From Patescibacteria group bacterium (GTDB lineage Bacteria; Patescibacteriota; Patescibacteriia; GWA2-46-9): a stretch of DNA of 64,000 nt. Of this stretch, positions 5,672 to 63,214 are shown one piece after another. A program made the translations under genes and the position numbers. Under the pieces are notes generated by a model, which was given only the letters and a program-made list of their open reading frames with translations, had not been told where the DNA came from and made no database searches. Each line of letters begins with the position of its first letter. Within the stretch, counting starts at the first letter, position 1. The stretch is taken from contig JBAYUF010000002.1 of assembly GCA_041675205.1 (NCBI GenBank), positions 1,731 to 65,730 of the forward strand, read 5' to 3'.

Positions 5672-6148
5672 ATGCCCGCAATGCGGTGCGTCAGGGAGGC
5701 GACAATGACCGAACTGTTGCTACTGGCCACAATTTTCCTGGTTTCATACCTCGTTTTTCGTGCAGTCGCGCCCCGTTGGGCAGCGTGGGTGAAAAGCCAC
5801 AAGACTCGCATGAGAAAGGAGGTCGTGACCTGGGCGATGTCCACCTACGGCTGGGATCGCACCAGAGCTCGGAACTGGGTGAACGCGAAGTTCACCTTCT
5901 ACACCGACGGCGCCGAGTGCCAAGGTGGACTGAACCTCCGCAACAAGAAGACAGTTCACCACCTACCGAGATGCCTGGTACGGATTATCGGGAACCTCGA
6001 CATTCGAGGCACCGGCGTCAAGCACCCCCCGAAGGTGGCTGTTCTCGGCCGGCTTCGAGCAGACGGCGCCCTTCGGGTCGCCGGCAATTCCTCTCACCTG
6101 TGGAGGGGGAGGCGTTGCCGGACCCATCGACGGGTTGGACGAAGATGA
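5672..6148 (+). CDS. hypothetical protein in a GC-rich islet (N-terminal TM helix; frame and extent uncertain)
   Basis: GC- and GC3-rich ORF, unlike the flanking DNA. The N-terminal hydrophobic helix is MTELLLLATIFLVSYLVF. The C-terminal ~25 aa are Arg-rich and may come from a frame error. An alternative frame (5686..6198) is low-complexity. Confidence 0.3.
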   Translation: MPAMRCVREATMTELLLLATIFLVSYLVFRAVAPRWAAWVKSHKTRMRKEVVTWAMSTYGWDRTRARNWVNAKFTFYTDGAECQGGLNLRNKKTVHHLPRCLVRIIGNLDIRGTGVKHPPKVAVLGRLRADGALRVAGNSSHLWRGRRCRTHRRVGRR

Positions 6149-6151
6149 ACA

Positions 6152-6183
6152 GAGGCCCGGTGCGTATCGTCGCGCCGGGCCTC
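6152..6183. terminator. GC-rich hairpin between convergent genes (possible bidirectional terminator)
   Basis: GAGGCCCGGTGCG...CGCGCCGGGCCTC inverted repeat, between the end of the 5672 ORF and the end of the 6204..7358 minus-strand gene. Confidence 0.4.
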
Positions 6184-6203
6184 TCTCAAAACTGCTAGGC
6201 AGG

Positions 6204-7358
6204 TTATGTTAACTGGTGGAATAATTCATACCCGGCACTAAAAACAAAAAGCACAACCAGCACACTGGCGGCGATACGGTTCATTGGCAAAAAACGAAAA
6301 CGAGAAATTCCTAATCCGCGAATCTTTTGCAACATGAGAACAATGAAGATGCCATCAATGGCAATCGAGATACCTCCCAAAAATGCGATGAGACTAACAA
6401 AATTGTTTGCGCCAAAAAGAAACGGAACAACCGGTAAGGCTACCGCGAGGAACCAAGAAGCGGTCGGTGAAATTTTAAAATCAAACTCATAGATTTCTTT
6501 GAGGTCGTACCCAAGTGAAAGATACGATTTAAAAACAGCTACGAAACCAAGCGCTGCTCCGAATTGAACGACGGACGGACCAAGCACTGCCACCAAACCA
6601 CTTAGGGCATCAGTAGTAACAGCCCCGCCTGATGCCATTAACACACCCGCAACAAAAATAGCAGTGGTGATTAATGGCAGCACCACACCGGCAACTATGA
6701 GTAACCGTAACCGTCGACAATCATCAACCGTCCCACGAAAAAATTGATACGCGTCTGCGATGACGACGTACCCGGAAAGTGAAAAAAGAAACACCGCAAA
6801 AGCAAACAGTGGATCATTGCCAATCGCAGGGAGTTGAGCAATGTCGCCCCGCACTATGCCCGCTAACCCGATGCCAACAAACGAGGTCATGAGCGGCAGC
6901 GCCAACATGAAATTGATTTCGCTAATTTGTCGGGCACGACCAAGAAGGAGCAAGGCGCCGACAACAAAAAATGTAATTGACCAATACGTTGCTGCACCAC
7001 CAAAAATTTTACTTAGAAATATGCCGCCCAGAAGCACATAGCCAAGCAGCACGCCACTGACGAAGATGACTTCGTTTACTGCGGCTATCCACCCGGGTAC
7101 AGATCCAAGATAACGCCGCACATAACCTGGCAAACGGTGCTGTTCAATTGTGCTCGCCACAACTTCACCATAACTGAGGTGTATTGCCAGCACGGCCGCT
7201 GCCGCCAGCACAGCGAGGAGAGTAGACCATCCTACACCTGAGATAGTCACCGCGTAAGGTACGGCAAAAATACCTGCACCTATAGTAAGACCCGCAATCA
7301 TACCTGCGGCTGAGAAAAATGGAGGAGCAAAAAGTGTTGTGCGCATGTGATTAATCAA
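6204..7358 (-). CDS. amino acid permease (aromatic/hydroxy amino acid transporter-like, HAAAP/APC-fold)
   Basis: 384 aa with ~11 TM helices. The N-terminal GxG(I/L)F.VP motif (GAGIFAVPYAV) is typical of TyrP/Mtr/TnaB-type permeases. Confidence 0.6.
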   Translation of the reverse strand: MINHMRTTLFAPPFFSAAGMIAGLTIGAGIFAVPYAVTISGVGWSTLLAVLAAAAVLAIHLSYGEVVASTIEQHRLPGYVRRYLGSVPGWIAAVNEVIFVSGVLLGYVLLGGIFLSKIFGGAATYWSITFFVVGALLLLGRARQISEINFMLALPLMTSFVGIGLAGIVRGDIAQLPAIGNDPLFAFAVFLFSLSGYVVIADAYQFFRGTVDDCRRLRLLIVAGVVLPLITTAIFVAGVLMASGGAVTTDALSGLVAVLGPSVVQFGAALGFVAVFKSYLSLGYDLKEIYEFDFKISPTASWFLAVALPVVPFLFGANNFVSLIAFLGGISIAIDGIFIVLMLQKIRGLGISRFRFLPMNRIAASVLVVLFVFSAGYELFHQLT

Positions 7359-8799: not shown

Positions 8800-10251
8800 A
8801 TGGTACCAATGATACCTCTTGGCGCGGTCATTCAAGAGCTCAAGGAATCGAGCAACCGTCGTGGGCTCAACCTCCAACTGCCCTGTGACGGGCACTACCA
8901 GCCCGGGGATTTGCGCTGGGCCTTTGGATACGACATGCGCACCTCATGGTGGGCACTTGTGGAATTCCGCTGGCTCGAAACGTTGGCAGCAACCGGGCAG
9001 ATGCCGGTTATGACTGGCACGCTGCTGACGCCGAATCTTCTCCGACGTGTCTTCGAGAAGACGCATACGGCGCGGGTAACGAGGCGTGAACGGGGAACGC
9101 CAACGAACCCCGGAACAGGGCACGACGTTCTTGCCCTCTTGGCGTGCATGCGTCAAGCGCTGCCACGGGAACTGCACCAGTACCTGCACCTCGATCTGAC
9201 ATCGTACGACACCATTTCGACCGCTTACGCGTTGCAAATGCGCGAAGCGTTCGAGGAGACGTTCTACGTCAAAGCTGGTGAAGTTGACCAACGGTGGCGA
9301 AGCCTGATTGCAGAGTACGCCGAGGTGGTCCAAATTGGACGGACTCACCTCCAGTACGCCCTACCCATCACCGTGGGTTGCTGGCTCGCTCAACTGCGTA
9401 ACCGTTTCGCGGCAAGCGTTCGTGAAGCAAGGAAACTCAGTCGCGCGATTCCTGGGAAAGCGAGTGGTGCAGTAGGCACGAGTGCGGCGCTGCGACACCA
9501 CTTTGGAACGAACGACCTCGAAGTTGGGCTACTCAATTCCTTGCGGTTGCCGCGGCCGCTGCAGTCTACCCAGATCACACCGCCAGAAGCGTTCGTCAGA
9601 TTTCTGGGTGAAATTGTACTGACCTCTGGGTCACTGGCTAATCTGGGGGAAGACGTACGGCTGCTGCAGTCGTCTGACATCGGAGAATTGACGAGCATCG
9701 GCTCAACAAGCTCGACGATGGCACATAAGACTGGTAACCCGGTGGCAGCCGAGAATATGGCCGGCATGCACGGCAGTGTTCTTGGTGCGTACACCATGGT
9801 ACTCGGAACACTCGTAAGCGACCTGCAGCGAGACCTTCGCGGATCGAGCGTGATGCGCGGCTTCGGCGGCGTACTTTGCTACACCTACCAGCAGCTACTA
9901 ACCGCCGACCGGTTGCTGAAAAGTCTGCGGGTAAACGAGGCTCGCTGCACAGAGAATCTGCAGAAAGCCGGACCGTGTGTAACGGCCGAACTGCTTTACG
10001 TATCACTGCTGCATGCGGGCTTCGCGAATGCCCATACGCTCGTGAACAAGGTAATCGTTCCGGCGGCGCGGGCAACTGGTTGCGACTTGGTAGTTGCCAC
10101 AGACACGGTCATCAAGCAGACGCGAAACAGACGGCTTCGCGCCGCTTGGACTCTCGTTCCGGAGGAAACGAGAAGGCAAATCGCTTCGCCCAGAGACTAC
10201 CTTGGTGATGCAGTAAAGTTGGCGGTTCGAACTGCCCACGATCAACTGTAA
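8800..10251 (+). CDS. adenylosuccinate lyase family protein (class I fumarate-lyase fold; PurB-like)
   Basis: 483 aa and GC-rich. The fumarate-lyase signature is GSTSSTMAHKTGNPVAAEN (GSSxMPxKxNP). An N-terminal W..EF.WLETLAA block resembles PurB. Its base composition is clearly different from the neighbouring genes. Confidence 0.65.
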   Translation: MVPMIPLGAVIQELKESSNRRGLNLQLPCDGHYQPGDLRWAFGYDMRTSWWALVEFRWLETLAATGQMPVMTGTLLTPNLLRRVFEKTHTARVTRRERGTPTNPGTGHDVLALLACMRQALPRELHQYLHLDLTSYDTISTAYALQMREAFEETFYVKAGEVDQRWRSLIAEYAEVVQIGRTHLQYALPITVGCWLAQLRNRFAASVREARKLSRAIPGKASGAVGTSAALRHHFGTNDLEVGLLNSLRLPRPLQSTQITPPEAFVRFLGEIVLTSGSLANLGEDVRLLQSSDIGELTSIGSTSSTMAHKTGNPVAAENMAGMHGSVLGAYTMVLGTLVSDLQRDLRGSSVMRGFGGVLCYTYQQLLTADRLLKSLRVNEARCTENLQKAGPCVTAELLYVSLLHAGFANAHTLVNKVIVPAARATGCDLVVATDTVIKQTRNRRLRAAWTLVPEETRRQIASPRDYLGDAVKLAVRTAHDQL

Positions 10252-16679: not shown

Positions 16680-18023
16680 CTACACAATGAGCGGCAGTGA
16701 CTCTAGAGGAAAGTGTTCATCGGTTATAACGCTCTCTATTCGATACGCACCGTGGGTTGGTGCTTCGATGTAGCCGCTCCACGCCATCTTGGCGAGACCA
16801 CCACTTGCCACCCAGTCAAAGAGCCACTCGCCAACATACTTTGGGTTATGCTGCGGCACACCACCTCCAACCGTTTGCAGCCAACGCGCGTTAAACTCTT
16901 CCTGAGATCCAAGCGGGGGAGCAATAATTATTGGTAATCCTGCGCCAGCATAGAAAGATTGTTCTGATGGTTTCGTCCACAAAACATCCGTCGTCGCTAG
17001 TCGCTTTGTGTAATCACGGAAGTAGTCGTGACGACTTTTTGTGTAGTAAACATGTACGCTACTGCCAAGATATTTCGTTAGGCGCAGATCGCTGACTGCT
17101 TTCTTGTAGAGGTCGCGAACACCGCGATGCGTGCCGGCTTCAAGGTTAAACGTAATCTCGTTTCTGGCAATACGAACACGGAGCGACTGCAGTGCCTCAA
17201 CGCCAATTTTTGCTTGCGCTCCGGCACCACCAACAGCGAAAGTAACAGTGAGCGACCGTGGTTGCGGTCGACTATGCCAATCGCGACCAAAGTGCTGGTG
17301 CAACGTTCGGTCGTACTGCTTTCTGAAAATACCATTTGGGTCAAGATTATTGAGTCGTCGCGAAATTTGACGCCGGAGCTGTGCTGGGTCTGGCCCGTCA
17401 ACTAATTCTTTTGGTAGGGGGAAACCAGTCAAGAAAATGTTCTCCTCGGGCACCCCATAGAGCTTCAACCGTTCTACCACTCTGCCGGTCGGGGCAAAAT
17501 ATTTAATGCGGCTTTGCTTTGGGTCAAGCGCTGCCCACGCTCTGCTAATATCGGCGTCAGTTACCACGCAATATATTTCCCCGGGGTAGCCATAATATTC
17601 AGCGGCAAACGCCGGAAGAAAAAAGGTTGTAACGAGTGGTAAATTTTTTCGTCGGAGACGATCAATCAGGTCGCGCATGAACTCATGCTTCTCCATCATT
17701 CGATACAGTTCACGAACTTGGAGGGTGGGGCGAGATAAATCACGACGTGGATAGAACGGCTGAATCTCTTGCAGCTTATCGTACGTTTCAAAAATGAACT
17801 GCCCCACAAGCGGCACGGTGCTGAGGCGTGAAATAGCCTCATAAAATTTTCTTCCTTGCTGCCAAAGCTGTAAATCCTTAGCTGGAATACCATCGTAATT
17901 ATTCGCCGTTACAATGTCGCCTGACGCAATGTGCCGTAAACCAAAAGCGGCGCGCTCGTGACCATATCCCATGTCGACCGATACAACCCACGCTTTCTGT
18001 TTTACTATACTGTTTTGTTTCAT
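16680..18023 (-). CDS. glycosyltransferase, MGDG-synthase/UgtP-like (GT28-related) family
   Basis: 447 aa. The N-terminal VVSVDMGYGHERAA resembles the G(N/Y)GH motif of the MGDG-synthase N-domain. A C-terminal GT-B Rossmann half is present. Tentative. Confidence 0.45.
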   Translation of the reverse strand: MKQNSIVKQKAWVVSVDMGYGHERAAFGLRHIASGDIVTANNYDGIPAKDLQLWQQGRKFYEAISRLSTVPLVGQFIFETYDKLQEIQPFYPRRDLSRPTLQVRELYRMMEKHEFMRDLIDRLRRKNLPLVTTFFLPAFAAEYYGYPGEIYCVVTDADISRAWAALDPKQSRIKYFAPTGRVVERLKLYGVPEENIFLTGFPLPKELVDGPDPAQLRRQISRRLNNLDPNGIFRKQYDRTLHQHFGRDWHSRPQPRSLTVTFAVGGAGAQAKIGVEALQSLRVRIARNEITFNLEAGTHRGVRDLYKKAVSDLRLTKYLGSSVHVYYTKSRHDYFRDYTKRLATTDVLWTKPSEQSFYAGAGLPIIIAPPLGSQEEFNARWLQTVGGGVPQHNPKYVGEWLFDWVASGGLAKMAWSGYIEAPTHGAYRIESVITDEHFPLESLPLIV

Positions 18024-18084: not shown

Positions 18085-18447
18085 CTACTGATGGAGCCAA
18101 TTAACTGCTTCTTGTTCAGAGTCAAAAAAACCAACCTTGGAGCTTTTTGCAAAACGAACGGCAAATTCAACGAACACTCTTTGCGTCTCATTAAGGAACC
18201 CAAAAAAGGCTACCTTTGTAAGTTGCGGATGCTCCAGGGCGGGAACGTACGCCTTGAGGGTCGCTGGGTCAGCCGAATTACTGGCGCTCGACAAATCAAC
18301 CAGTGCTGAAAACTGTTCACCCGGATGGTCTGAAAATGTTTTTAAGACAACACCAGTCAATGTCTCCGCCTTAGCGGCGTCATCTTCTGCGTAAACAGTA
18401 ACGCGCAGCTGATTGTTTGGTTCAATGGCAAGTGTATGTGCGGGCAT
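18085..18447 (-). CDS. hypothetical protein (possible STAS/SpoIIAA-like fold)
   Basis: 120 aa with no strong motif. The C-terminus, FFDSEQEAVNWL, is reminiscent of STAS-domain proteins. Confidence 0.35.
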   Translation of the reverse strand: MPAHTLAIEPNNQLRVTVYAEDDAAKAETLTGVVLKTFSDHPGEQFSALVDLSSASNSADPATLKAYVPALEHPQLTKVAFFGFLNETQRVFVEFAVRFAKSSKVGFFDSEQEAVNWLHQ

Positions 18448-18578
18448 AGAGCAAGTGTACGTCGAGCATCACCCGTGGGCAAGAAGTGCCTTACCTTGAC
18501 CGATAGCAATCCACATCGTAGTATGTTGTGTTCGGCCAAAAAGGGTTGGACAAAAAACTCACAAGGGGTTCAAGAGTA

Positions 18579-18920
18579 ATGTTGTTTTTGTTTGACGTCC
18601 ATCTAAGCGAATACCTCCCAGTGGTGGAGGCAGTCAAGAAAGAGCTCGGCTCCGAGTTGGTAGCAACCGATTCGGCTGTCGAGGCGGAAAAACTGATCGA
18701 AGGACTCACGACTGCACCGAGTGTGGCAATCGTCACCCCTGGTGATGCACACTGCGAAGAAGGGCGCAGGGTAGCAACGCAGCTCCGGGCAAAGTTCCCG
18801 GACACGAAGATAGTCCTTTGGTCCACCCAGACCTACCGGGGACCGTGGGACGAAGAGGTCCAGCGGCATTGGGCGTTGGAGGACAACACCACACCGCTTA
18901 TTCAGGCCATCAAGGCCTGA
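18579..18920 (+). CDS. hypothetical protein with a degenerate receiver-like fold
   Basis: Start at ATG 18579, preceded by AAGGGG. The first residues MLFLFDVH, and then KIVLWST, resemble a REC domain, but the canonical acid pocket and Lys are missing. Moderately GC-rich. Confidence 0.3.
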   Translation: MLFLFDVHLSEYLPVVEAVKKELGSELVATDSAVEAEKLIEGLTTAPSVAIVTPGDAHCEEGRRVATQLRAKFPDTKIVLWSTQTYRGPWDEEVQRHWALEDNTTPLIQAIKA

Positions 18921-18942
18921 CCAAAACCTGGTTCGCGAACTA

Positions 18943-18986
18943 CGCCGGCCGTTTCTCCCCAAACTTGGGTTGAGGAACGGCCGGCG
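18943..18986 (+). terminator. stem-loop CGCCGGCCGTT...AACGGCCGGCG followed by an AT-rich tract
   Basis: 11-bp inverted repeat 23 bp after the stop at 18918-18920. The same AACGGCCG arm style occurs at 10265. Confidence 0.45.
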
Positions 18987-19149
18987 AAATCATTTTTAAT
19001 AATCACGCCTGGGTTGACAAATCTATAAAAACTTGTACGATACAGAGTTCTTTTCTCAATTTTGGGAACTGAATCACTTTGCAAATTAGAAGTTGTTGCA
19101 AGAGTGGGTAAGGTAACTTCGCTTTGAAAATTGACTTAGAGGTGAGCAG

Positions 19150-19782
19150 ATGAGCGACCAGATCAGCACAACCACCAACCCCGTCGGCAGCTGCGTGCAC
19201 TGCAGCAAGCCAGCGACGGGTGGGAACTGGGAGAAATACTTCCGTGTGCCCTCAATGATCGAGATCGAGAACTTTCTCGAGGCGCAAGGAATGCCCCGGA
19301 TCGTTCAGGAGGAGCACCTGTTCATGGTGCTCGTTTGCTCGGTCTGCCGACCCGAACTCGAAGCGGCGGGCATGGCCTTCCACCAGGTCTGCTCCGCGCG
19401 CAGGCTGATCAAAGAGGACGAGGTCAGGCGGGCGGAACAGGTGAAGCGCGAGGCCGAAGCCAAGGTGAAGCGCGAAGCCCGCGAGGCCGAAGCCAAGGTG
19501 AAGCGCGAAGCCCGCGAGGCCGAAGCCAAGGTGAAGCGCGAACGGGCTGCGGCGACTGCTGCCCTCTTCGGCCACAAGCCCGATGAGCAGCGTCAGCGTC
19601 CGCACCGCACGGAAGTGATCGGACGCATCGAGCCGACCACCAGGCCGGTTGAACTGCCCCGCCATGTCCGAGGCAATGGCCAGTTCCGGAACTCCCCGTT
19701 CGCCGACATGGGACAGCCGCCCCGCAACGAGGAGCGAACCCACCCCAAGAGCGGAAAAAGGAACCGCGGCCACCGCTCCTGA
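19150..19782 (+). CDS. hypothetical protein: N-terminal Cys4 zinc-ribbon-like region plus Ala/Glu/Lys/Arg repeat coiled-coil
   Basis: GC-rich ORF with RBS GAGGTGA. It has CVHC...(40 aa)...CSVC. The 11-aa unit VKREAREAEAK occurs about three times, encoded by 33-bp DNA repeats. Confidence 0.5.
   Translation: MSDQISTTTNPVGSCVHCSKPATGGNWEKYFRVPSMIEIENFLEAQGMPRIVQEEHLFMVLVCSVCRPELEAAGMAFHQVCSARRLIKEDEVRRAEQVKREAEAKVKREAREAEAKVKREAREAEAKVKRERAAATAALFGHKPDEQRQRPHRTEVIGRIEPTTRPVELPRHVRGNGQFRNSPFADMGQPPRNEERTHPKSGKRNRGHRS
19441..19540 (+). repeat. 33-bp tandem repeat (about 3 copies; first copy is a shortened 24-bp form) GTGAAGCGCGAAGCCCGCGAGGCCGAAGCCAAG inside the CDS
   Basis: Units start at 19441, 19465, 19498 and 19531. 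Confidence 0.8.
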
Positions 19783-19861
19783 CCACAACCGCTCACATGC
19801 CGCCTGCTCTCGACTTAAAGGAAGAGAGCAGGCGGCGGGACAAGTAAGAAGGAATGAAGCG

Positions 19862-20218
19862 ATGAAAGAAGACGACGTGAAGAAGAGTCTGCGGAGCTTC
19901 CTGGACGAGTCGTGCTCACCTGGAGCACAGCCCGTTCAGGAGGTCGTCGCATTGGTGTTTTGGCGGGAACACTACTGGTTCCCGCGACTGAGAGCAACGT
20001 TCGTGCGAAGAACGAACAAACACGGACTGTTGGTCGCCAACAGACACGTGATGGAGGCACGCAAGAACACGGCGCAGGCGAGCGCAGAGCTCGAGACCTG
20101 CGACGCCACCAGTCAGACGGTGTTCCTGGCCTCTATGGGCCATGCTCGCGAACATCGCTGCCAGTTGGCGAGCGACCTCATCGTCGCTGCGCTCAAGCGC
20201 TGCGGCTACATCAGCTGA
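19862..20218 (+). CDS. hypothetical protein
   Basis: 118 aa. Start ATG at 19862 after AAGGAA. The upstream part of track ORF 19649..20218 overlaps the previous gene out of frame, so it is trimmed. Confidence 0.4.
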   Translation: MKEDDVKKSLRSFLDESCSPGAQPVQEVVALVFWREHYWFPRLRATFVRRTNKHGLLVANRHVMEARKNTAQASAELETCDATSQTVFLASMGHAREHRCQLASDLIVAALKRCGYIS

Positions 20219-20261
20219 CGTGCCCAAGTCGCCACCCTGGCGACTACGGCCGAACAATTCC

Positions 20262-20312
20262 GAAAGGGCCCACACATCGTCAAGATGTTGTTCGGGCCCT
20301 TTCTTCGTTTTG
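20262..20312 (+). terminator. rho-independent terminator (AAAGGGCCC...GGGCCCTTT then U-run)
   Basis: 9-bp GC-rich stem with an internal ACATC/GATGT sub-stem, followed by TTCTTCGTTTTG. Confidence 0.5.
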
Positions 20313-20425
20313 AAAATTTTAAAACGACCAACTGACCAACGTTAGACAATTGACTGATGAGTATAATGCTGCTAATTTGCGGCCACGAACGAACGTTCAA
20401 AACTCGCAAGGAGCAAACCCCGACC

Positions 20426-21055
20426 ATGACGAATTGTTTTCGAATGATGGCAACAGGCATTCTACTTGAAGGCATTCCGGTTATCGGCAACGGAAAGCGC
20501 TGCGTACAGCTTGGCGACAGGGAGGACGTCCGTGTGATTCCATTTCATGCGCAACCACCCTTGGTGCGCGATGAGCTTCTTCGTGAAGCTGCACCGGATA
20601 AAACCAACCCCAAGCGTCCGCTGCTGCGTAGCAAGGGGCGGTGGGGTGGTGTGCTCATCATGGTAACGACTCGTATACTCCGCTTCCCGGAGACGACGAG
20701 CACCCACCTGCCGTGCATCATGAATGCGTGGGCGGGTATCGAACAGGCCGAATACCCTTTCGCGCAATCGGGCACACGATACTTGCTGGTCGCTATTGAG
20801 GATGGCGAGATATGTTTCGCTTGCGACACAACGAAGCGCTACGTACAGCTTTTTTGCAATAACGGCCGCATCGAAATATCAGCCGCCGACCCACAAAAAC
20901 TGGCCGGATGTCTGGTGGAACGAGCCAGACGAAGAGGCAATGCACACGCAGGTCTCACATGGACCCTGCGCACGCTCGAGAACCTGGGCTACGGGAATCT
21001 ATGGCCAGATGATCTCCGGAAACGACTCGCCGCAATGGACACCTGTCGATACTAA
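20426..21055 (+). CDS. hypothetical protein
   Basis: 209 aa starting at ATG 20426, 12 nt after AAGGAG. GC-rich. No recognisable family. Confidence 0.4.
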   Translation: MTNCFRMMATGILLEGIPVIGNGKRCVQLGDREDVRVIPFHAQPPLVRDELLREAAPDKTNPKRPLLRSKGRWGGVLIMVTTRILRFPETTSTHLPCIMNAWAGIEQAEYPFAQSGTRYLLVAIEDGEICFACDTTKRYVQLFCNNGRIEISAADPQKLAGCLVERARRRGNAHAGLTWTLRTLENLGYGNLWPDDLRKRLAAMDTCRY

Positions 21056-21119
21056 AGATAAGCGCAACTGCGCTAAGGAGGAACGAGTGGCAAAGGGAAG
21101 GAAATAGGAAAGAGGCGCG

Positions 21120-21326
21120 GTGCCAAAACCCACCAAACCTTCTTCAACGGAGGAGCTGGCAGACCAAGTAAGAACGTTCCTCGACACGGCGACCCCGAAG
21201 GAACGCGAAATCTTTGCCGTACGCTTCGGCATCGGTACGCCAGACGGGAAATCTTTCCCGAAGACCAATGCGAAAATCGCCGCAATCGTGAAACGCGCGA
21301 TGGCGGCCCTCCATAATAAGACCTAG
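21120..21326 (+). CDS. small protein with a sigma-70 region-4-like segment (REREIFAVRFGIG...)
   Basis: 68 aa with a GTG start. TPKEREIFAVRFGIGTPDGKSF resembles the L..RE..V...RFGL.DG. start of sigma region 4.2, but the protein is too short for a complete HTH. Confidence 0.3.
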   Translation: MPKPTKPSSTEELADQVRTFLDTATPKEREIFAVRFGIGTPDGKSFPKTNAKIAAIVKRAMAALHNKT

Positions 21327-21345
21327 CGGTCTTAGTCTCCGGCCA

Positions 21346-21400
21346 GAAGGCCCCCGCATTGCTTTAAACACAGCAGCGCCGGGGCCTTCGAACTTTTTGA
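21346..21400. terminator. hairpin GAAGGCCCC...GGGGCCTTC plus T-run between convergent genes
   Basis: 9-bp stem with a long loop, then AACTTTTTGAATTG. Confidence 0.4.
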
Positions 21401-21407
21401 ATTGCTT

Positions 21408-22403
21408 CTAGCTACTCGTTACTGGTGCGCCTACTGAGTAATTTACAAAAAAGGCTTCTGGTAAATCATCTACCTGTTTTGACCAGTTCGCGCCGTACAT
21501 ACTGACTGCAATGTCGGGTGACGTTACGTGCCGTAAGACTCCACCGAGCTGCACCACATAGACGTGTGGGTCTGTTGGCACCTTCACCATTCGCACTCCT
21601 GGGCGTGAGGTTACATTCCCACCAAGCGGGATGTTGGCAAGGTCTGTGTCAGTAATTTTTACAACACCTGTAAAGTCTGGGTACCAGCTGATGTAAGTTT
21701 TTTGATTTGGAAAAACATACCGCTTGTTGTCCGCACCACAGTAGTAGACGGCGCTCAGTGAACCCTTGATGAGTGTGTTCGACTCGCAAACTGTGTTGAA
21801 GTTCGCGACCAACTGCTTATCGTCATTTATGGTTGGCGCACTTTGTGTAGCTTTGGCGGGATCAAATTTTGTAACGCTATCTGCAACAACGAGGCTTGGG
21901 TAAGGATTTATAGGAGAGTGGTCTGGTAAACGTATTTCAAAATGAAGATGCGACCCAATGTTTTCGGCATTACCGCTATCACCAACCCAACCAATATGTT
22001 GCCCAGCCACCACCGGTGACCCACGCTCAATTCCCGGTGCATAGGCATACGGCGGGCCACCTAAACCGTCATCGGTGCCAGGCGTGTCGTTATTAATGTG
22101 AAGGTAATGATACGAGTATCCGTCATTTCCCCGAATGATAATAGTAAATCCGTACGACGGCTCTTCTTGGGGCAATGAGCTAACATAGCCGCCTACGGCG
22201 GAAACAACTGGTGTCATTTTTGCAGCAGTAATATCTATACCCTCGTGCACGCGCCCACCAGAGCGAGGGTCACCATAGTCATCACTAAAACTGTGCGCAC
22301 CATTCACTGGGAACGTAATGGTACGAAGTTCCTGCGTCTCAGCAAGACTGACTGCGGGAAGCAATAGTGAAAAGACTGAGATTATAGTGACAATTTTCAA
22401 CAT
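21408..22403 (-). CDS. M23-family metallopeptidase (secreted)
   Basis: 331 aa with a signal peptide. The M23 core is HEGIDITA...GWVGDSGNAENIGSHLHFEI (HxxxD and HxH). Confidence 0.85.
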   Translation of the reverse strand: MLKIVTIISVFSLLLPAVSLAETQELRTITFPVNGAHSFSDDYGDPRSGGRVHEGIDITAAKMTPVVSAVGGYVSSLPQEEPSYGFTIIIRGNDGYSYHYLHINNDTPGTDDGLGGPPYAYAPGIERGSPVVAGQHIGWVGDSGNAENIGSHLHFEIRLPDHSPINPYPSLVVADSVTKFDPAKATQSAPTINDDKQLVANFNTVCESNTLIKGSLSAVYYCGADNKRYVFPNQKTYISWYPDFTGVVKITDTDLANIPLGGNVTSRPGVRMVKVPTDPHVYVVQLGGVLRHVTSPDIAVSMYGANWSKQVDDLPEAFFVNYSVGAPVTSS

Positions 22404-22674: not shown

Positions 22675-22965
22675 ATGCCAACGCAAAGGTTCAACAACTA
22701 CCAACGAGGGGCCAATCGCCCCCTGAACGGTGAACGGTTCGGTGACAGTCGCCTTGAGTGGGTACTCGGTTGCAGCGGTACGCACCACGCCCGACTCACT
22801 GAACGAGTCGAAGTCGTGAACGACGAGGGGGTACCGTTCGTTCAACACAGCCGAACGCAGAAGGACATCAAGGTCACAACAAAGGGCCCCTGCGATGGTT
22901 CTTGTACCGGCCGGCAGGGAGGGGGCCACTTCTTCGCCGAAGTCGACTCAGTTGGCGACAGCTAA
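22675..22965 (+). CDS. hypothetical protein (GC-rich islet)
   Basis: 96 aa. ATG at 22675, preceded by AAGGAGG. There is an overlapping antisense ORF, so the strand choice rests on the RBS. Confidence 0.35.
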   Translation: MPTQRFNNYQRGANRPLNGERFGDSRLEWVLGCSGTHHARLTERVEVVNDEGVPFVQHSRTQKDIKVTTKGPCDGSCTGRQGGGHFFAEVDSVGDS

Positions 22966-23020
22966 CTGCTCGCACAACCCAAGACACATTTGGGTGTAGG
23001 GAGCCAACACAGAGAATCAT

Positions 23021-23058
23021 GAAGAGGGAACATGTGTCGTTCCCTCTTCATCTTTTTT
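23021..23058 (+). terminator. rho-independent terminator GAAGAGGGAAC-auguguc-GUUCCCUCUUC-UUUUUU
   Basis: 11-bp perfect stem followed by a T-run. Immediately precedes repeat A1. Confidence 0.7.
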
Positions 23059-23117
23059 AAAAAGTTTTGGAAACAAAAACACTCCCGTTGCACGGGGGAT
23101 GTGTATTGATTTTTAGC
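23050..23117 (+). repeat. island repeat A, copy 1 (approx. CTTTTTGAAAAGGTTTTGGAAACAAAAACAATCCCGTTGCACGGGATGTTTTGATTTTTAGCC)
   Basis: One of three direct copies (see 24994 and 27973). Each follows a GC-rich terminator hairpin, contains the small hairpin ATCCCG-TTGCA-CGGGAT, and ends in TTTTTAGCC. Confidence 0.8.
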
Positions 23118-23279
23118 CTTAGAGGGGCCACCAAGGGACGTGATACCCTACAACGGGTTATAAAATAAACCGACTCAAAGCCCCTAAATCCAACCCAGTT
23201 TGGGTCAGCAACATGCTTTGCCAGTGTCTAGCCTGATGGAAAGCTGTATACTTATAACAATATTAATGATTAGAATTTT

Positions 23280-24144: not shown

Positions 24145-24639
24145 ATGCTCATTAGAATTGAATACTTAGGACAGTTCGTTGGTTGGCGCATTGATTGCGA
24201 CGGTTGCGGCGTCAAGGACGAACACGACCGCGGCCCGGAAGGTCAGATTCTCCTCGCACACAACGAGGAGAGGGAAGCCTACGATTCGGCCTCATGCACG
24301 GAGTGCGACAACAGCCCATGGATTCTCCGCGTCGGTGACGACGACCTCTGTGAGTCGTGTCGCAACGAGGGTCCGCTGACAGCCGATCAACGGCGCATCT
24401 ACGGCCACCTCCTCGATGCCGCCGTCGCCCACGAAGCCGACATACCAGTCAATGATCTACTCACTACCAGGTTAGCTGACACAACCCCTGCCATCGACGC
24501 TCTCCTAGCAAACGTGCTCGGAGCAACAAAATTGGAACCTCCCCAGGACGCCATGAAAATCAAGATACAACTCTTGGGGTCACCTCCTACTGTTGCGTGG
24601 GTACTCAGAAATGCCGCGCGCGGGCTTAAGGTGAGCTAG
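24145..24639 (+). CDS. hypothetical Cys-rich (zinc-ribbon-like) protein
   Basis: 164 aa and GC-rich. Strong RBS GAAGGAGG. Four Cys pairs: CDGCG...CTEC...CESC. Confidence 0.45.
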   Translation: MLIRIEYLGQFVGWRIDCDGCGVKDEHDRGPEGQILLAHNEEREAYDSASCTECDNSPWILRVGDDDLCESCRNEGPLTADQRRIYGHLLDAAVAHEADIPVNDLLTTRLADTTPAIDALLANVLGATKLEPPQDAMKIKIQLLGSPPTVAWVLRNAARGLKVS

Positions 24640-24672: not shown

Positions 24673-24924
24673 ATGAATAATAAGCGAGGAGATATAACCA
24701 AGCTACTAAGGAAACTGCGTGTAGCTGTCAAGGTAATCGAAGATTTTGACCTTCGTGCATTGCGGCGGGAACTGAAAGAAACACAAACAGAGATGGCTCA
24801 GATGCTCGGTGTTTCTCTGCGGACATACAGTACGTGGGAGAGGAAGGAGTCGAACACACCACTTCGAACGCTGAAATATCTCTGCACCCCAAGCAAGAAG
24901 ACGACCGCCAAACGCAAGCGATGA
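24673..24924 (+). CDS. XRE-family helix-turn-helix transcriptional regulator
   Basis: 83 aa with RBS AGGAGG. LRRELKETQTEMAQMLGVSLRTYSTWER is an HTH_XRE-type motif. Confidence 0.65.
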   Translation: MNNKRGDITKLLRKLRVAVKVIEDFDLRALRRELKETQTEMAQMLGVSLRTYSTWERKESNTPLRTLKYLCTPSKKTTAKRKR

Positions 24925-24950
24925 AAACAAGATAGGAACCGCCGAACGAA

Positions 24951-24999
24951 GAAGACCCGTGTGCATTGCAACTGCAGTGCCCGGGTCTTCGTTCTTTTT
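24951..24999 (+). terminator. terminator hairpin GAAGACCCG...CGGGTCTTC plus T-run, preceding repeat A2
   Basis: 9-bp stem with a 22-nt loop, then GTTCTTTTT. Confidence 0.55.
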
Positions 25000-25057
25000 G
25001 AAAAGGTTTTAAAAATAAAAACAATCCCGTTGCACGGGATGTTTTGATTTTTGTTAG
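24994..25057 (+). repeat. island repeat A, copy 2
   Basis: CTTTTTGAAAAGGTTTTAAAAATAAAAACAATCCCGTTGCACGGGATGTTTTGATTTTTGTTAG, near-identical to copies 1 and 3. Confidence 0.8.
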
Positions 25058-25089
25058 TAGAGTACTATCCTTTGGGTAAGGAGGATACC

Positions 25090-25364: not shown

Positions 25365-25410
25365 TAGCCTCACTCCCGCAGGGATCGTTCACAAAAAAAC
25401 GTGCTTATCC
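25365..25410 (+). repeat. island repeat B, copy 1: TAGCCTCACTCCCGCAGGGATCGTTCACAAAAAAACGTGCTTATCC
   Basis: Direct repeat of 27745..27790. It resembles the forward-strand image of the tRNA-Glu 3' end (TAGCCCCACGGGGAATCGAACC). Confidence 0.6.
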
Positions 25411-25492
25411 ATGTTTTTCATTGCGCAACTTGTCCTCGTGTAAGCATACAGAATCAGAGATTAATCAAATACTCAATTCTCTAATTCCACCC

Positions 25493-27744: not shown

Positions 27745-27790
27745 GTCCCCACTCCCACAGGAATCGTTCACACGAAAGCGTGCTCACTCC
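27745..27790 (+). repeat. island repeat B, copy 2: GTCCCCACTCCCACAGGAATCGTTCACACGAAAGCGTGCTCACTCC
   Basis: Direct repeat of 25365..25410. Together the two copies bracket the minus-strand two-gene operon. Confidence 0.6.
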
Positions 27791-27930
27791 CTTTGGTCGT
27801 TGTGCTGCTTGTATTTACGGGGCGAATCTCACCACGGTTCAATTTCTCAGAATGGGAGGAAGAAATAAAAGCCCCTAATAGGGCCATATTAATAGGTTTA
27901 CAAAGAACGGTTTAGGAGTTTACAAAAGAG

Positions 27931-27978
27931 GAGAGACCCGCACCATATCACTGGTGTTCCGGGTCTCTTCTTCTTTTT
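27931..27978 (+). terminator. terminator hairpin GAGAGACCCG...CGGGTCTCTTC plus T-run, preceding repeat A3
   Basis: 10-bp stem, then TTCTTTTT. Confidence 0.55.
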
Positions 27979-28036
27979 GAAAAGGTTTTGGAAACAAAAA
28001 CAATCCCGTTGGACGGGATGTTTTGATTTTTAGCCC
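27973..28036 (+). repeat. island repeat A, copy 3
   Basis: CTTTTTGAAAAGGTTTTGGAAACAAAAACAATCCCGTTGGACGGGATGTTTTGATTTTTAGCCC, followed directly by repeat C1. Confidence 0.8.
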
Positions 28037-28105
28037 AAGTGGGTGCGCATTGGAACTCTATTGTTTTGGAGCTGAGAGAATGGTTGAGGTTTGGGGAGGA
28101 GATGA
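28031..28105 (+). repeat. island repeat C, copy 1 (TAGCCCAAGTGGGTGCGCATTGGAACTCTATTGTTTTGGAGCTGAGAGAATGGTTGAGGTTTGGGGAGGAGATG...)
   Basis: ~90% identical to 29503..29578. The track ORF 28023..28259 is probably a translation of this repeat. Confidence 0.7.
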
Positions 28106-29262: not shown

Positions 29263-29502
29263 TCCTTCGTCGCTAAGCTTCTCAGGACAAGCGGGGAATT
29301 CCGACGCCCTTCGTCGCCAGCAGTGCGACTCAGTGCTCTGTCCTGGGCAGCGCTTGATGCTTCGCCTGCTCACATCCATCGGCGCTCGCGGTATTCGTGA
29401 TTTCTTCCGAAATCACTCAGCGCTCGCTGCTGCCCGTTCGATTCCCACGCGGGGAAGCACATACCAAAAAAGCACCCCTCACAAGGAGAGATGCTTTTTT
29501 GG

Positions 29503-29578
29503 TAGCCCTAGTGGGTGCGCATTGGAACTCTATTGTTCTGGAGCTTAGAGAATGGTTGCGGTTTGGGGAAGATATGGA
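29503..29578 (+). repeat. island repeat C, copy 2 (TAGCCCTAGTGGGTGCGCATTGGAACTCTATTGTTCTGGAGCTTAGAGAATGGTTGCGGTTTGGGGAAGATATGG...)
   Basis: Direct repeat of 28031..28105. It is preceded by TGG, so the junction reads TGGTAGCCC, the same 9-mer that opens the forward image of the tRNA-Glu CCA end (TGGTAGCCCC at 38306-38315). Confidence 0.7.
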
Positions 29579-33282: not shown

Positions 33283-33603
33283 AGAATGAGTAACTTTTAT
33301 AATATTACTAATTCTAGATGTTTCACTAATTCTTGTCAACAAACTAAATGTTTGTAGAACTTATACTTGGCCAATTTTATAGAAATAGGCCATAATGATT
33401 GCGACAATTGAATTGCCTAAACCACTGGGTAACCAGCGGCATGGCAAGAAATCCCACAACGATACTGAACCCCGTGTTCAGCGACTCGTTGTGGGTCATA
33501 TCCCGAAAGGGGTATGGGGCAGAAAGGCTCAGCTGGCGCGGGGCTCTGTGTTGCACCCCAAGCGCCTTGCTACCTACAAGTCGCTTATTTTTATTTTATT
33601 CAC

Positions 33604-34374
33604 ATGGACAACCAATCAACTTCGGGAAGTATCAAAAAACCCTTTTGGCAGCAGTTATGGTTTCTCGTGCCTATGGCTGTTTTGTTACTCATTATCGTTA
33701 GTGCAGCGAACTCTTTGGAAAAAACGAGTGATCAATATTCAGGACCAGTGCAAGCGATGGTTTTTGATTTACCTCCACTCATAGGCAAAACAATAGATGA
33801 AGTTGTAACTGCACTCGGAGAACCAACAGCAGAGGAGGAACCAACAGCAGAGCAAAAGAAGGTTGGGTATACAGAAGGCACAGTAAGCTACGAACACGAG
33901 GGTATCACGCTAATGGTCAACTTTGATGTGCTTACTCGAAAAGTAAATGATTTCTATGTCAGCCCGCCCGGTATAGAGCCGGTGCAAAACATTACGGCTC
34001 TCTTGCAAGCAGCTAATCTCAGAGAAGAAACAACTGATTCATATGTGGTGAGTAGTGTTTCAGCCGGAGACAAAAAAGATGCTGGCTACTCTGGTATTGT
34101 CGTCATTACGAAAGAAGATGCGGAGCGCAAAAATACTATTCAGAAACAGTTTAGCGCGTGGGATGGTTCCCACATCAAACTTACTCGAGTCATCAAAGAT
34201 TCGATGCATGATCCTGATAGCTATGAACACGTAAAAACAACATACGTGGATAAAAGTGACCACCTCATCGTCACCACAACGTTCCGAGGCACGAATGCTT
34301 TTGGTGGCAAAATCTCCAATACTGTAAGCGCTAAGGTCTCCGTCCAGGGAGACGTTATCGAAATACTTGAGTAG
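33604..34374 (+). CDS. hypothetical membrane-anchored protein
   Basis: Start at ATG 33604. N-terminal TM FWQQLWFLVPMAVLLLIIV, then a soluble domain. Unknown family. Confidence 0.45.
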   Translation: MDNQSTSGSIKKPFWQQLWFLVPMAVLLLIIVSAANSLEKTSDQYSGPVQAMVFDLPPLIGKTIDEVVTALGEPTAEEEPTAEQKKVGYTEGTVSYEHEGITLMVNFDVLTRKVNDFYVSPPGIEPVQNITALLQAANLREETTDSYVVSSVSAGDKKDAGYSGIVVITKEDAERKNTIQKQFSAWDGSHIKLTRVIKDSMHDPDSYEHVKTTYVDKSDHLIVTTTFRGTNAFGGKISNTVSAKVSVQGDVIEILE

Positions 34375-36819: not shown

Positions 36820-38346
36820 ATGAGCATGAATACAGTAAAAACTGGGATAATTTACGTTAGAGTTTCCTCTAAAGATCAGGTTGAAAACACGAGTCTAGAA
36901 TCGCAAGAAAAAGCCTGTATAGAATACGCTGAACGAAACGCCATTACGATTATTGAGCCAGCGTTCGTCGAGAAAGGTGAGTCTGCAAAAAGCGCCAACC
37001 GAACTGAATTCCAAAAGGCTATTTCACGATGCGCTGATAAGAAACTACCAATCAAGTACTTCGTTGTTTATAAACTTGATCGTTTCGCTCGAAACCAAGA
37101 TGATCATGTCACTGTAAGAGCCATTCTCAGACGCTACGGTACTGAACTTCGTTCTGTTACGGAACCAATCGACGAAAGTTCACTGGGGCGAGCCATGGAA
37201 GGAATGATTTCTGTTTTTGCAGAGCTAGATAACAATATGCGAACCGAACGGACTAGGGGCGGGATGCTAGCTCGAATACGACAGGGTATTTGGTGTTGGC
37301 AAGCTCCGCTGGGCTACTACCGCCCATACAAGAAAGCTAACATTACGCCTGATGAAAAAATAGCACTCTACATAAGGATCTTGTTCGAAGAATACGCTAA
37401 AGGAACATACACTTACGAGAGGTTGGCAAGATTTATTAGTGATCGCGGATTACGAACAAAGGAGGGTAAGAAACCTTGGCCACAGCTCATGGTAAAAATT
37501 TTGAAAAACGAAGTTTACTGTGGAGTAATAGTCGGACTCGGAGAGAGAATCGATGGTGCATTTGAACCGATTGTTTCAAGAGAGCTTTTTGAACAATGCA
37601 GAAAAATAAGACTTGGCATTGCAAATGGCTGTCGTCGTTCACCAGAAAACCCTCTGTTCCCACTACGACGGATTGTGGTTTGTACCAAATGCAAGCAACC
37701 ACTCACCGGCAGCAGATCTCGGGGGAAACTCGGGAAATACTACCATTACTATCATCATCGTAAACAAGGTTGCGTGGCCGCAAAAAGTATCCCCAATATC
37801 GAACTAGAAAAGATTTTTCTGAATTATTTTCAAAGGATCGCACCCAATGATCGTTTTGAAAAGTTATTCAAAGCCATCATTACTGATACTTGGAAGAGTA
37901 GTTATAAAAAGCTAGACGAAAATAATTCTCGGATTCAAAAACAGATAGAAGTATTGGCTACTGATCGTCAACGTATTTTTGAGTTCCACCAGAATGGTAA
38001 ATACTCCGATGAAGAATTTCAAGAACAGAAACGGCTTATAAACCAACGCATCGAACAAAAGAGGATACTACTAGATGACAGCCGGATTGAAGAATTCGAT
38101 ATGGAGCTAGCCCTCAATTATTGTTTTGAGTATTTGAGAGCCATTCCAGAGAAATGGGGAAAAACTAGCGATGTATCTAGAAAAATGCGCTTACGGGGTT
38201 TGATGGTCAAAGGATTTATATATTTCGACGGCGAACGAATTGAAACCCTCGATATGACAGAGATTCACAGGGTAAAACAAGAGTACGGTGGTGAAAAATA
38301 CCATTTGGTAGCCCCACGGGGAATCGAACCCCGATTTCCGCCGTGA
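36820..38346 (+). CDS. large serine recombinase (phage-integrase/resolvase-type serine recombinase)
   Basis: 508 aa. The N-terminal resolvase catalytic domain is IYVRVSSKDQ...(catalytic Ser)...VYKLDRFARN. Then comes a recombinase domain, a zinc-ribbon (CTKCKQP...C) and a coiled-coil. The last 41 nt overlap the tRNA-Glu gene on the opposite strand. Confidence 0.85.
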   Translation: MSMNTVKTGIIYVRVSSKDQVENTSLESQEKACIEYAERNAITIIEPAFVEKGESAKSANRTEFQKAISRCADKKLPIKYFVVYKLDRFARNQDDHVTVRAILRRYGTELRSVTEPIDESSLGRAMEGMISVFAELDNNMRTERTRGGMLARIRQGIWCWQAPLGYYRPYKKANITPDEKIALYIRILFEEYAKGTYTYERLARFISDRGLRTKEGKKPWPQLMVKILKNEVYCGVIVGLGERIDGAFEPIVSRELFEQCRKIRLGIANGCRRSPENPLFPLRRIVVCTKCKQPLTGSRSRGKLGKYYHYYHHRKQGCVAAKSIPNIELEKIFLNYFQRIAPNDRFEKLFKAIITDTWKSSYKKLDENNSRIQKQIEVLATDRQRIFEFHQNGKYSDEEFQEQKRLINQRIEQKRILLDDSRIEEFDMELALNYCFEYLRAIPEKWGKTSDVSRKMRLRGLMVKGFIYFDGERIETLDMTEIHRVKQEYGGEKYHLVAPRGIEPRFPP

Positions 38347-38380
38347 AAGGGCAGCGTCCTAACCGTTAGACGATGAGGCC
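38306..38380 (-). tRNA. tRNA-Glu (anticodon TTC), CCA encoded
   Basis: The reverse complement is GGCCTCATCGTCTAACGGTTAGGACGCTGCCCTTTCACGGCGGAAATCGGGGTTCGATTCCCCGTGGGGCTACCA. It folds as a cloverleaf (acceptor stem with two G:U pairs), with anticodon loop CUUUCAC and TpsiC loop TTCGATT. Confidence 0.8.
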
Positions 38381-38532: not shown

Positions 38533-39009
38533 TCAGATCGGCAAGCTGGGCGTCGCTGGCTCCGATGGGAAGACATTCCCGGTCGCGACTTTCGCGAAGG
38601 CCTGCCGCAAGACCCTGACATACTCCAAGGGGTCGTTCAGGACGAGACACGCCGCTTCGTCTGTTGCTGGCTGGGAGAAGTACATCTGCGACATCGCCCC
38701 ACCCGCTCCAGCAAGCTCAACAACGACCCCCCATCTTGGGTCTGCCTCGTCGATAGCCGTGAAGAAATTGACGTTCACGACAGTGACGATAGGCAGGGGT
38801 TGTAGACCAACCTCTGTCGCCACCCCCGCGGCAAAGTGGCACATGCAGGGGTCCACCTGCGTTCCACGGCATTCTTGAGCAATGTCGTGAAACGCCTTCG
38901 CCACGGCCGTGGCGATGCCTACCCGGGCGGCAGGTGGATCGTCGGCTCCCTTGGCTATGCCCGTCAGAAAGAAAAAAGAGACACACACCGTCCACATTTT
39001 TTTTCTCAT
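38533..39009 (-). CDS. hypothetical secreted protein (GC-rich islet)
   Basis: Start at MRKKMWTVCVSFFFLTGIAKGADDP (signal peptide), preceded by GGAGGG. GC-rich compared with the neighbouring genes. Confidence 0.45.
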   Translation of the reverse strand: MRKKMWTVCVSFFFLTGIAKGADDPPAARVGIATAVAKAFHDIAQECRGTQVDPCMCHFAAGVATEVGLQPLPIVTVVNVNFFTAIDEADPRWGVVVELAGAGGAMSQMYFSQPATDEAACLVLNDPLEYVRVLRQAFAKVATGNVFPSEPATPSLPI

Positions 39010-39111
39010 CACATCCACCCTCCATCGTGTGGTGCCACACTTATAGCTCATCAATTAAAGACCGTCAATGCTAATTGCGACGATGCACATGAACCCGTAT
39101 ACTCGGGTCAT

Positions 39112-62285: not shown

Positions 62286-62405
62286 ATTCTACACAAAGCT
62301 GCGTTGCTCATTCTGAACGGCGGTGCTAAGGTACCGCCGTTTGCGTTTTTAGCGTCTATAGAGACGCTCCATGATCATTACCAGAGGAATAAGGAGGAAA
62401 GAACC

Positions 62406-63200: not shown

Positions 63201-63214
63201 GAAGAAGGAGTAGG

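Follow-up and report, generated by a model that had tools for sequence, protein, structure and literature searches.

Does a short GC-rich islet in a genome of the Patescibacteria betray a recent import from a high-GC donor? The question is raised by positions 18501-21400 of a 64-kb stretch of contig JBAYUF010000002.1 (the whole stretch is hereafter called the window), for which a sequence-only reading had proposed such an origin. Five genuine protein-coding genes (A to E) are clustered in this tract, all on the plus strand and arranged in three self-contained units (A, B-C and D-E; Table 1), and detectable relatives of the islet genes are found only in Patescibacteria or in metagenomic genomes. 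We tentatively regard A-E, with a little less than even confidence, as an ordinary accessory islet of moron-like cassettes that moved laterally within Patescibacteria, were fixed and are under purifying selection, with GC-richer lineages as their likely source.

The compositional anomaly of this ~3-kb islet was borne out. In a window with an overall guanine-plus-cytosine (GC) content of 47.9%, the tract is the GC maximum of all 2.9-kb segments (0.567, for a mean of 0.478 and a standard deviation of 0.034; z ~ +2.6), and its raw tetranucleotide distance is also the largest among segments of this size across the 64 kb. The longest contiguous tract with at least 56% GC runs from 18584 to 21415 (57.0% GC), and the local GC content peaks at 68% inside gene B. 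The GC content at third codon positions (GC3) is higher in the five islet genes than in the 56 other open reading frames (ORFs) of at least 100 amino acids (aa) in the window (median 0.45, interquartile range 0.41-0.48; Mann-Whitney p = 4.9e-6). The tract thus departs from its background in both GC and codon GC3, as compositional islands do. Further islets in the window that had been likened to this one proved GC-rich too (Table 1). Long antisense ORFs, whose density had also been remarked upon, are present and are accounted for by the fact that GC3-rich genes avoid the A-ending codons TTA, CTA and TCA.

Codon-position GC and Shine-Dalgarno-like sites, one of which is present at every gene from A to E, support the gene models: position 2 has the lowest GC in all five genes and position 3 the highest in A, B, C and E (in D, 0.59 for position 3 against 0.61 for position 1). 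The coordinates given earlier for B, C, D and E are supported in this way, but the list was incomplete, as gene A had been overlooked even though the hairpin reported at 18943 is its terminator. The GC-rich, long-stem hairpins at 18943, 20262 and 21346 are real by their folding energies against shuffled sequences, from which the z-scores of Table 1 were computed; the T-run begins 7 nucleotides (nt) past the stem of the first, and the third is related in sequence to a hairpin at 24950-24990. The strongest hairpin-plus-T-run sites of the whole window are concentrated at 18.9-28 kb. Since promoter-like sites (consensus matches for A and B, a site read from the alignment for D) precede A, B and D and hairpins follow A, C and E, the five genes fall into the three units named above. 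By inspection, all five products appear to lack a signal peptide or membrane segment. Both junctions of the tract recur in independent assemblies: one JGI contig matches 16292-20084 at 99.95% identity, and D and the neighbouring gene F are both encoded on a Logan contig of 9.8 kb. The NCBI locus tags over the region are WC052_01320 to WC052_01365.

Table 1. Coordinates of the islet genes, of their predicted signals and of other features of the window (GC3, GC content at third codon positions).
Feature	Positions	Strand	Details
Gene A	18579..18920	+	113 aa; GC3 0.67; predicted receiver (CheY-like) fold
Gene B	19150..19782	+	210 aa; GC3 0.81; N-terminal CxxC...CxxC domain, charged helical repeat, basic tail
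Gene C	19862..20218	+	118 aa; GC3 0.76; AAGGAA 8 nt upstream
Gene D	20426..21055	+	209 aa; GC3 0.59; member of an undescribed Patescibacteria family
Gene E	21120..21326	+	68 aa; GC3 0.65; sub-threshold sigma-70 region-4-like mini-protein
Promoter-like site of gene A	18496..18524	+	TTGACC-17-TAGTAT, consensus scan; both hexamers kept in relative L027
Terminator-like hairpin after A	18943..18986	+	-36.2 kcal/mol, z = -7.5; nearly identical in L027
Promoter-like site of gene B	19014..19041	+	TTGACA-16-TACGAT; best consensus match of the region, 10/12; kept in L027 and in distant L029
Putative conserved hairpin in the 5' leader of B	19075..19106	+	RNAalifold, 3 sequences: 10-pair stem, loop kept
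Three tandem 33-nt repeats in B	19447..19545	+	11 aa, REAEAKVKREA; 100%, 100% and 91% identity
Terminator-like hairpin after the B-C unit	20262..20303	+	-28.4 kcal/mol, z = -6.4; followed by TTCGTTTTGAAAATTTT
Promoter-like site of gene D	20350..20378	+	TTGACT-17-TAATTT, read from the alignment; kept in L029
Terminator-like hairpin after the D-E unit	21346..21389	+	-28.6 kcal/mol, z = -3.4
Other GC-rich islets	5672-6148; 22675-22965; 24145-24639; 38533-39054	+; +; +; -	GC3 0.62-0.70
Gene F	22675..22965	+	96 aa; GC3 0.66; AAGGAGG site; own hairpin 23019-23051, -23.6 kcal/mol
Gene H	24145..24639	+	164 aa; Cys-rich; GC3 0.63
XRE/MqsA-like helix-turn-helix gene	24673-24924		83 aa; 34 nt after gene H; HTH_3 match 1.5e-7
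GC3-rich purine genes	8800-10251; 62304-63200; 63167-63409		purB-like Lyase_1/ASL_C; purN-like formyltransferase; GARS C-terminal domain

None of A-E or of the neighbouring small genes matches a family at threshold in Pfam, PHROGs, NCBIfam or PADLOC; matches of A-E to the PADLOC defence models are marginal (best 1e-3, between E and the sigma part of MzaA), and PHROGs gave nothing better than an E-value of ~0.01. The description of these genes as lacking recognisable families is therefore accurate for the four collections, but it fails for D, for which an exhaustive HMMER search of 1.84 billion representatives returned 46 homologue clusters (at 50% identity), 24 of them with an E-value of 1e-10 or less (6e-65 to 5e-4 overall). 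These homologues are all full length (~205-240 aa) and 27-54% identical. A word-index search with D returned the query alone, and the reversal of this orphan call, made by a k-mer-prefiltered search, by an exhaustive one advises caution in calling genes lineage-specific. The alignment of 40 family members displays the motifs NAWPGAE, VQxGxR...Q.QLVA, VAD...RY, LVxRA and LxWT and the invariant residues G104, D134 and W193, and it is by full-length homology together with these conserved motifs that D belongs to the family. The family profile has no counterpart in Pfam or the Protein Data Bank (PDB), and a single-sequence AlphaFold2 (AF2) run gave no confident model of D (predicted local distance difference test, pLDDT, 35). 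The family's conserved N-terminus, MxxNCxxL, supports placing the start of D at 20426; annotation pipelines give the gene five different starts, for products of 202, 203, 209, 229 and 232 aa (public records, 20357-21055).

All named D homologues come from Candidatus Kaiserbacteria (four proteins) or Candidatus Uhrbacteria, and the expectation that the best hits would lie in a high-GC phylum was thus not borne out for D. On a Kaiserbacteria-type contig of 54% GC (L039), the neighbours of D are uppS, gmk, PPDK and purine genes, and in GC3 (0.67) D resembles these housekeeping genes. The neighbourhood of D is different in every genome examined. A neighbour-joining tree, itself star-like, groups the D proteins of the window and of the metagenomic contigs L038 (1 kb, SRR29054604) and L029, and places a member from a 56% GC genome as the sister of this clade.

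In a 41% GC genome represented by JGI contigs (L029-L032), a homologue 41% identical to D lies between BipA and a DEAD-box helicase, and directly upstream of it on L029 is a 194-aa homologue of B (37-41% identity; tblastn E-value 2.6e-24), with no gene C between the two. This adjacency of B and D is found in the window and in L029 only; because it is conserved, the two proteins probably act together. The B-like gene has a GC content of 0.60 and a GC3 of 0.70 and the D-like gene 0.54 and 0.55, compared with a GC content of 0.33-0.46 in the flanking genes. The promoter of D and the start of its leader (GCGGCCACGA) are kept between the window and L029; the L038 contig begins inside the D promoter, retains the -10 element and the leader start, and has a terminator directly after D and no E. 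The L029 contig is also a mosaic in which small genes of 54-56% GC are scattered at 2052-2288, 2507-2983, 6038-6481 and 17358-17684, and this scattering of small GC-rich genes may be common to genomes of this kind.

The N-terminal domain of B, ~90 aa long, contains two CxxC pairs and a FRVPSxxEIExF motif. Cys15, 18, 63 and 66 and this motif are kept both in L029 and in L027, a 1-kb Logan contig (SRR6213120) that covers the beginning of the islet, and the basic tail carries short conserved motifs. The CxxC pairs and the tandem repeats support the zinc-ribbon/repeat nature that had been attributed to B from its sequence. NCBI names this protein 'cell envelope integrity protein TolA', a name owed only to the charged repeat. 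The promoter and the leader of B are kept across the window, L027 and L029; within the leader, five of the ten pairs of the predicted hairpin are compensatory between the window/L027 pair and L029, which is suggestive of a conserved RNA structure.

The L027 contig also carries the only close relative of gene A. It is ~81% identical to the window in A and presents, at the same locus, the 5' end of the SpoIIAA-like gene, the promoter of A, A itself, its hairpin, the promoter of B and the start of B. Differences from the window number 17/13/35 at the first, second and third codon positions of A and 21/11/30 in B, and this concentration of the divergence at third positions indicates that both proteins are under purifying selection. 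GC3 is similarly high for A, B and D in L027 and L038. In the word-index protein search, A had a single homologue (P0003, 81% identical). An AF2 model of A built from two sequences only (pLDDT 76, predicted template modelling score 0.70) shows beta-alpha alternation, and the top 45 Foldseek matches of this model in the PDB are all receiver domains of response regulators (template modelling score ~0.7). Gene A may thus encode a stand-alone, possibly degenerate receiver-like protein. Its predicted five-stranded alternating beta-alpha fold is that of stand-alone receivers of the CheY/Spo0F type, from which it differs in giving no match to Pfam Response_reg, even at an E-value of up to 1, and in that an alignment with CheY and Spo0F was out of register and left the acidic pocket, the phospho-acceptor Asp and the conserved Lys unplaced; the beta5 region of the model has low confidence. 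No histidine kinase was found among the neighbouring ORFs scanned against Pfam, a scan that covered about half of the larger ORFs of the window. The divergent neighbour of A (18085-18447) gave a weak match to SpoIIAA-like/STAS proteins (E-value 0.007, below threshold), which would fit a partner-switching style of regulation.

Gene E had been described as a sigma-region-4-like mini-protein, a label that is acceptable as a weak resemblance and not as membership, all scores being sub-threshold. A phmmer search of the PDB gave SigA region 4 (E-value 0.024); the other matches were to MzaA (5.5e-4) and RpoD (4e-3) in NCBIfam, to MzaA in PADLOC and to a sigma family in PHROGs (0.0097), and none was obtained in Pfam. 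The best NCBIfam score, 18.9 bits, compares with curated cut-offs of 43 to 800 and the match covers only residues ~3-46, so that E lacks the curated-threshold match across the helix-turn-helix that would define sigma-70 region 4. These residues align to region 4.1 and early region 4.2 (L..L...L..RE..V...RFG) of the SigA, RpoD and MzaA models, and by eye E is ~8-10 residues short of the full helix-turn-helix with its -35 recognition residues. L029 carries a GC-rich 78-aa Sigma70_r4/GerE-only protein, to which E has no detectable similarity. For gene C, a word-index search of 5.8 billion proteins returned only C itself. Judged from fold and weak similarity, A, B and E appear to be small cytoplasmic regulatory or adaptor proteins; that they act on transcription is our best guess, made with low confidence.

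How widely the islet is conserved bears directly on its origin. Its sole close relative, L027, has A-B at the same locus, and the genome and metagenome collections yielded no species-level relative. For the flanking DUF6938-type gene (16680-18023, minus strand), the best relatives, ~50% identical, are in Candidatus Magasanikbacteria and metagenome-assembled genomes, and scans with this gene of GTDB genomes and JGI metagenomes gave at most 51% identity and no synteny. The sequence-only reading would have been undone by islets conserved as core genes in all relatives; A-B is indeed conserved at its locus in the ~81% relative, but the islet genes are not universal core genes. Given the absence of synteny at the flanking gene and the varied contexts of D, lateral movement within Patescibacteria is likely. 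Most transfers detected in Patescibacteria run between Patescibacteria (PMC12455944). The cassettes would then probably have come from GC-richer lineages, for example Kaiserbacteria-type genomes, whose native composition the D family shares; they would have been fixed before the split from the ~81% relative and kept thereafter by purifying selection.

Several observations weigh against this account. Once corrected for base composition, the oligonucleotide signature of the tract is not deviant: its GC-normalised tetranucleotide correlation ranks 58 among 123 segments, which leaves only the GC and the raw signature as deviant in the sliding-window analysis that the sequence-only reading had called for, and the true GC-normalised outlier of the window is a low-GC block at 25.5-38.4 kb. 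The intergenic DNA of the islet without its hairpins has a host-like 46% GC, so the excess GC is confined to coding sequence (mostly third positions) and terminator stems. The borders of the islet at 18.5 and 21.4 kb show no mobility gene, tRNA or direct or flanking repeat, and the nearest integrase lies at 36820-38346. The closest relatives of D and B, on L038 and L029, have a high GC3 in low-GC genomes at 37-54% protein identity, and a single old transfer followed by amelioration is therefore no explanation; under a simple neutral model, the GC3 of B at the split from L027 would have been 0.98. No genome of a close relative that lacks the islet was found. Finally, the functional proposal draws on one AF2 model from two sequences and on sub-threshold hidden Markov model matches.

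These points lend some weight to a different explanation, which we consider unlikely overall yet the foremost rival: that the genes are vertically inherited Patescibacteria genes whose high synonymous GC is actively maintained, by codon choice, mRNA structure or biased gene conversion, and is no relic of transfer. Across three hosts of 41-48% GC, GC3 is 0.70-0.87 for B and 0.55-0.64 for D while the proteins are only 37-54% identical, and promoters and leader are conserved over the same distance. Differences from L027 are symmetric between strong-to-weak and weak-to-strong changes (9 versus 11 and 11 versus 16), the ancestral GC3 that neutral decay requires for B is the extreme value given above, the normalised signature is host-like and L029 shows a like pattern of scattered GC-rich small genes. 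On the other hand, the window genes of ribosomal-protein size are not GC3-rich, and the pattern is therefore no simple expression effect; the neighbourhoods of D are unrelated from one genome to another and C is specific to this lineage; a GC-rich pool that donated genes repeatedly would leave the same pattern; and the mechanism is hypothetical and the relatedness of the window and L029 hosts uncalibrated. With two or three sequences and without a species tree, cassette transfer and maintained GC3 cannot be separated.

Less probable still is a decayed prophage or integrative element, of which the islet would represent true morons or the early/regulatory region of the serine-integrase element nearby. 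Morons are defined by a promoter, a gene, a terminator and a composition unlike that of their neighbours (PMC4378225), and the islet units fit this definition: they are predicted to have their own sigma-70-like promoter and a strong factor-independent terminator, their composition is deviant and they carry small accessory genes lacking an assigned function. The neighbourhood offers the XRE-type gene, an M23 peptidase with endolysin-type PHROG matches (21408-22403) and, beside a tRNA-Glu, the integrated element at ~29.6-38.4 kb with its large serine integrase (phrog_95, 1e-78), Abi_C and AAA ATPase. Unlike phage morons, however, the units are not inserted between phage or prophage genes; they lie outside any recognisable prophage and have no phage relatives, two of the three contain two genes, and at least the B and D units persist, promoters included, in genomes far apart instead of being recent insertions between conserved phage genes. 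The best PHROG E-value of A-E is the ~0.01 noted above, scans of IMG/VR with D, B and A found nothing, and blastn of the tract returned nothing from plasmids and, from GenBank phages, only a 62-nt match to the repeat. Moreover, the 18-29 kb region contains no structural or replication genes, the integrase element is opposite in composition (~41% GC) with another tetranucleotide signature, and the L029 and L039 homologues lie among housekeeping genes. The prophage origin is thus suggested by the neighbourhood and not by the islet's own genes.

The origin first proposed for the islet, a recent acquisition from a high-GC donor, would place that donor beyond Patescibacteria, for instance in an actinobacterial host; we now consider it very improbable. 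Its starting point stands, since GC and GC3 are clearly over the background, the GC3 of B is typical of genomes with more than 65% GC and other GC-rich window genes, including those for purine synthesis, are possible imports. What is not supported is that the transfer was recent and from a high-GC phylum: relatives of D, B and A were found only in genomes of the Candidate Phyla Radiation (CPR) type or from metagenomes, A-B lies beside the same SpoIIAA-like gene in the ~81% relative, B-D persists in a 41% GC genome that has kept its promoters and leader too, and neither the intergenic DNA nor the normalised tetranucleotide signature is foreign. For D, B and A this origin is largely refuted. An assembly chimera, or non-coding GC-rich DNA with artefact ORFs owing to a low stop-codon frequency, is excluded for practical purposes, for although high-GC DNA gives long ORFs on both strands and the contig comes from a metagenome-assembled genome, independent assemblies and a diverged relative show the junctions as well, the divergence is biased towards third positions, D and B have full-length homologues and codon-position GC fits a single frame in each gene.

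Lateral movement of cassettes within Patescibacteria, which we prefer, may also be set beside two other known systems. Like the genomic islands described in Patescibacteria (PMC12455944), the islet is a compositional island of a CPR genome with many hypothetical genes, and its likely exchange partners are also other Patescibacteria; it differs from them in its size (2.9 kb), in a border without integrase, tRNA or repeats, in being deviant in GC only and in persisting in a diverged relative. With integron cassettes it shares small, mostly orphan genes on the same strand, each followed by an imperfect inverted repeat, but its hairpins are followed by T-runs and its genes have promoters of their own. 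Integron attC sites were considered and rejected, as no RYYYAAC/GTTRRRY cores occur at the seven hairpins, and the ORFs scanned against Pfam included no tyrosine integrase.

Downstream of the islet, gene F is absent from the NCBI calls and has no family in scans of Pfam, NCBIfam and PADLOC. Gene H and the XRE-type gene, which is followed by a strong hairpin at 24948-24990, possibly form a two-gene regulatory or toxin-antitoxin-like unit. An intergenic element of ~65 nt occurs in three plus-strand copies (23051-23125, 24993-25060 and 27975-28045), each consisting of a GC hairpin with a variable stem followed by CTTTTTGAAAAGGTTTTGGAAACAAAAACAATCCCGTTGCACGGGATGTTTTGATTTTTAG; related TTTTGAAAA tails stand after the hairpins at 20303 and 21389, and the element has no match in the other loci or in IMG/VR. 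A terminator-type hairpin at 27930-27972 and another in L038 (733-775, 3' of the D homologue) share an identical 17-nt loop segment, CCATATCACTGGTGTTC, and their stems differ by compensatory changes, which suggests that this hairpin is more than a plain terminator; a single occurrence of the 17-mer in IMG/VR, without a hairpin, was judged to be a chance match. Two further repeated segments, non-coding or leader-like and found by eye, lie in long intergenic regions: 25367-25440 versus 27748-27820 (CACTCCCRCAGGRATCGTTCACA...AAACGTGCT) and 28033-28100 versus 29506-29572 (AGCCCnAGTGGGTGCGCATTGGAACTCTATTGTTnTGGAGCTnAGAGAATGGTTGnGGTTTGGGGA).

The segment 29498-38380 is a likely integrated element of ~41% GC, and no other part of the window is as atypical in its GC-normalised tetranucleotide signature. 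Its serine integrase (36820-38346; Resolvase, Recombinase and Zn_ribbon_recom domains) adjoins tRNA-Glu (38306-38380, minus strand); Abi_C, an AAA ATPase (phrog_6841), a trypsin-like peptidase and an Excalibur protein come before it. The direct repeat TTTGGTAGCCC, 11 nt long and found at 29498 and at the 3' end of the tRNA (38304), is a possible att core, although by itself it is at chance level. Inside the putative element, a match to LOOT RNA (Rfam RF03000) lies at 33414-33530 on the plus strand (88 bits, for a gathering score of 46.4), just upstream of a 286-aa gene (33514-34374) whose start it slightly overlaps.

Elsewhere in the window, the purine-synthesis genes of Table 1 are GC3-rich (0.63-0.66, compared with 0.35-0.48 for their neighbours) and may likewise be imports; in a tblastn comparison, the purB-like gene had no similarity to purB of the Kaiserbacteria-type contig L039 at E-values below 1e-5. 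The GC-rich ORF at 38533-39054 (minus strand, 173 aa), which has a signal-peptide-like N-terminus, overlaps the longest-ORF start of TsaD (38836-40251, plus strand), whose true start probably lies further downstream.

Taken as a whole, the islet is real and was correctly described by the sequence-only reading, which over-interpreted its origin, and the novelty of the finding is modest. Its lasting value lies in the D family, in the B-D module with its conserved promoters and leader, and in the unexplained persistence of a high GC3 in low-GC hosts. D represents a conserved, unannotated family of at least 46 clusters, apparently limited to Patescibacteria and often located among housekeeping genes, that would merit structure prediction and an entry of its own as a new family. 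A stronger proposition, to which we accord little probability, is that Patescibacteria-restricted cassettes, at least the B and D units, hold their synonymous GC far above background in deeply diverged low-GC hosts. If true, it would imply either selection on synonymous sites (for example where a conserved regulon is controlled through its codons or its mRNA structure) or a cryptic system of cassette exchange in the CPR that leaves neither integrase nor att scars. The B-D pair, whose GC3 stays strongly elevated and whose regulatory DNA is conserved although its hosts have only 41-48% GC, offers a small, testable case of whether a 'foreign' composition invariably signals recent transfer, a question that bears on how the output of compositional island finders is to be read in CPR genomes.

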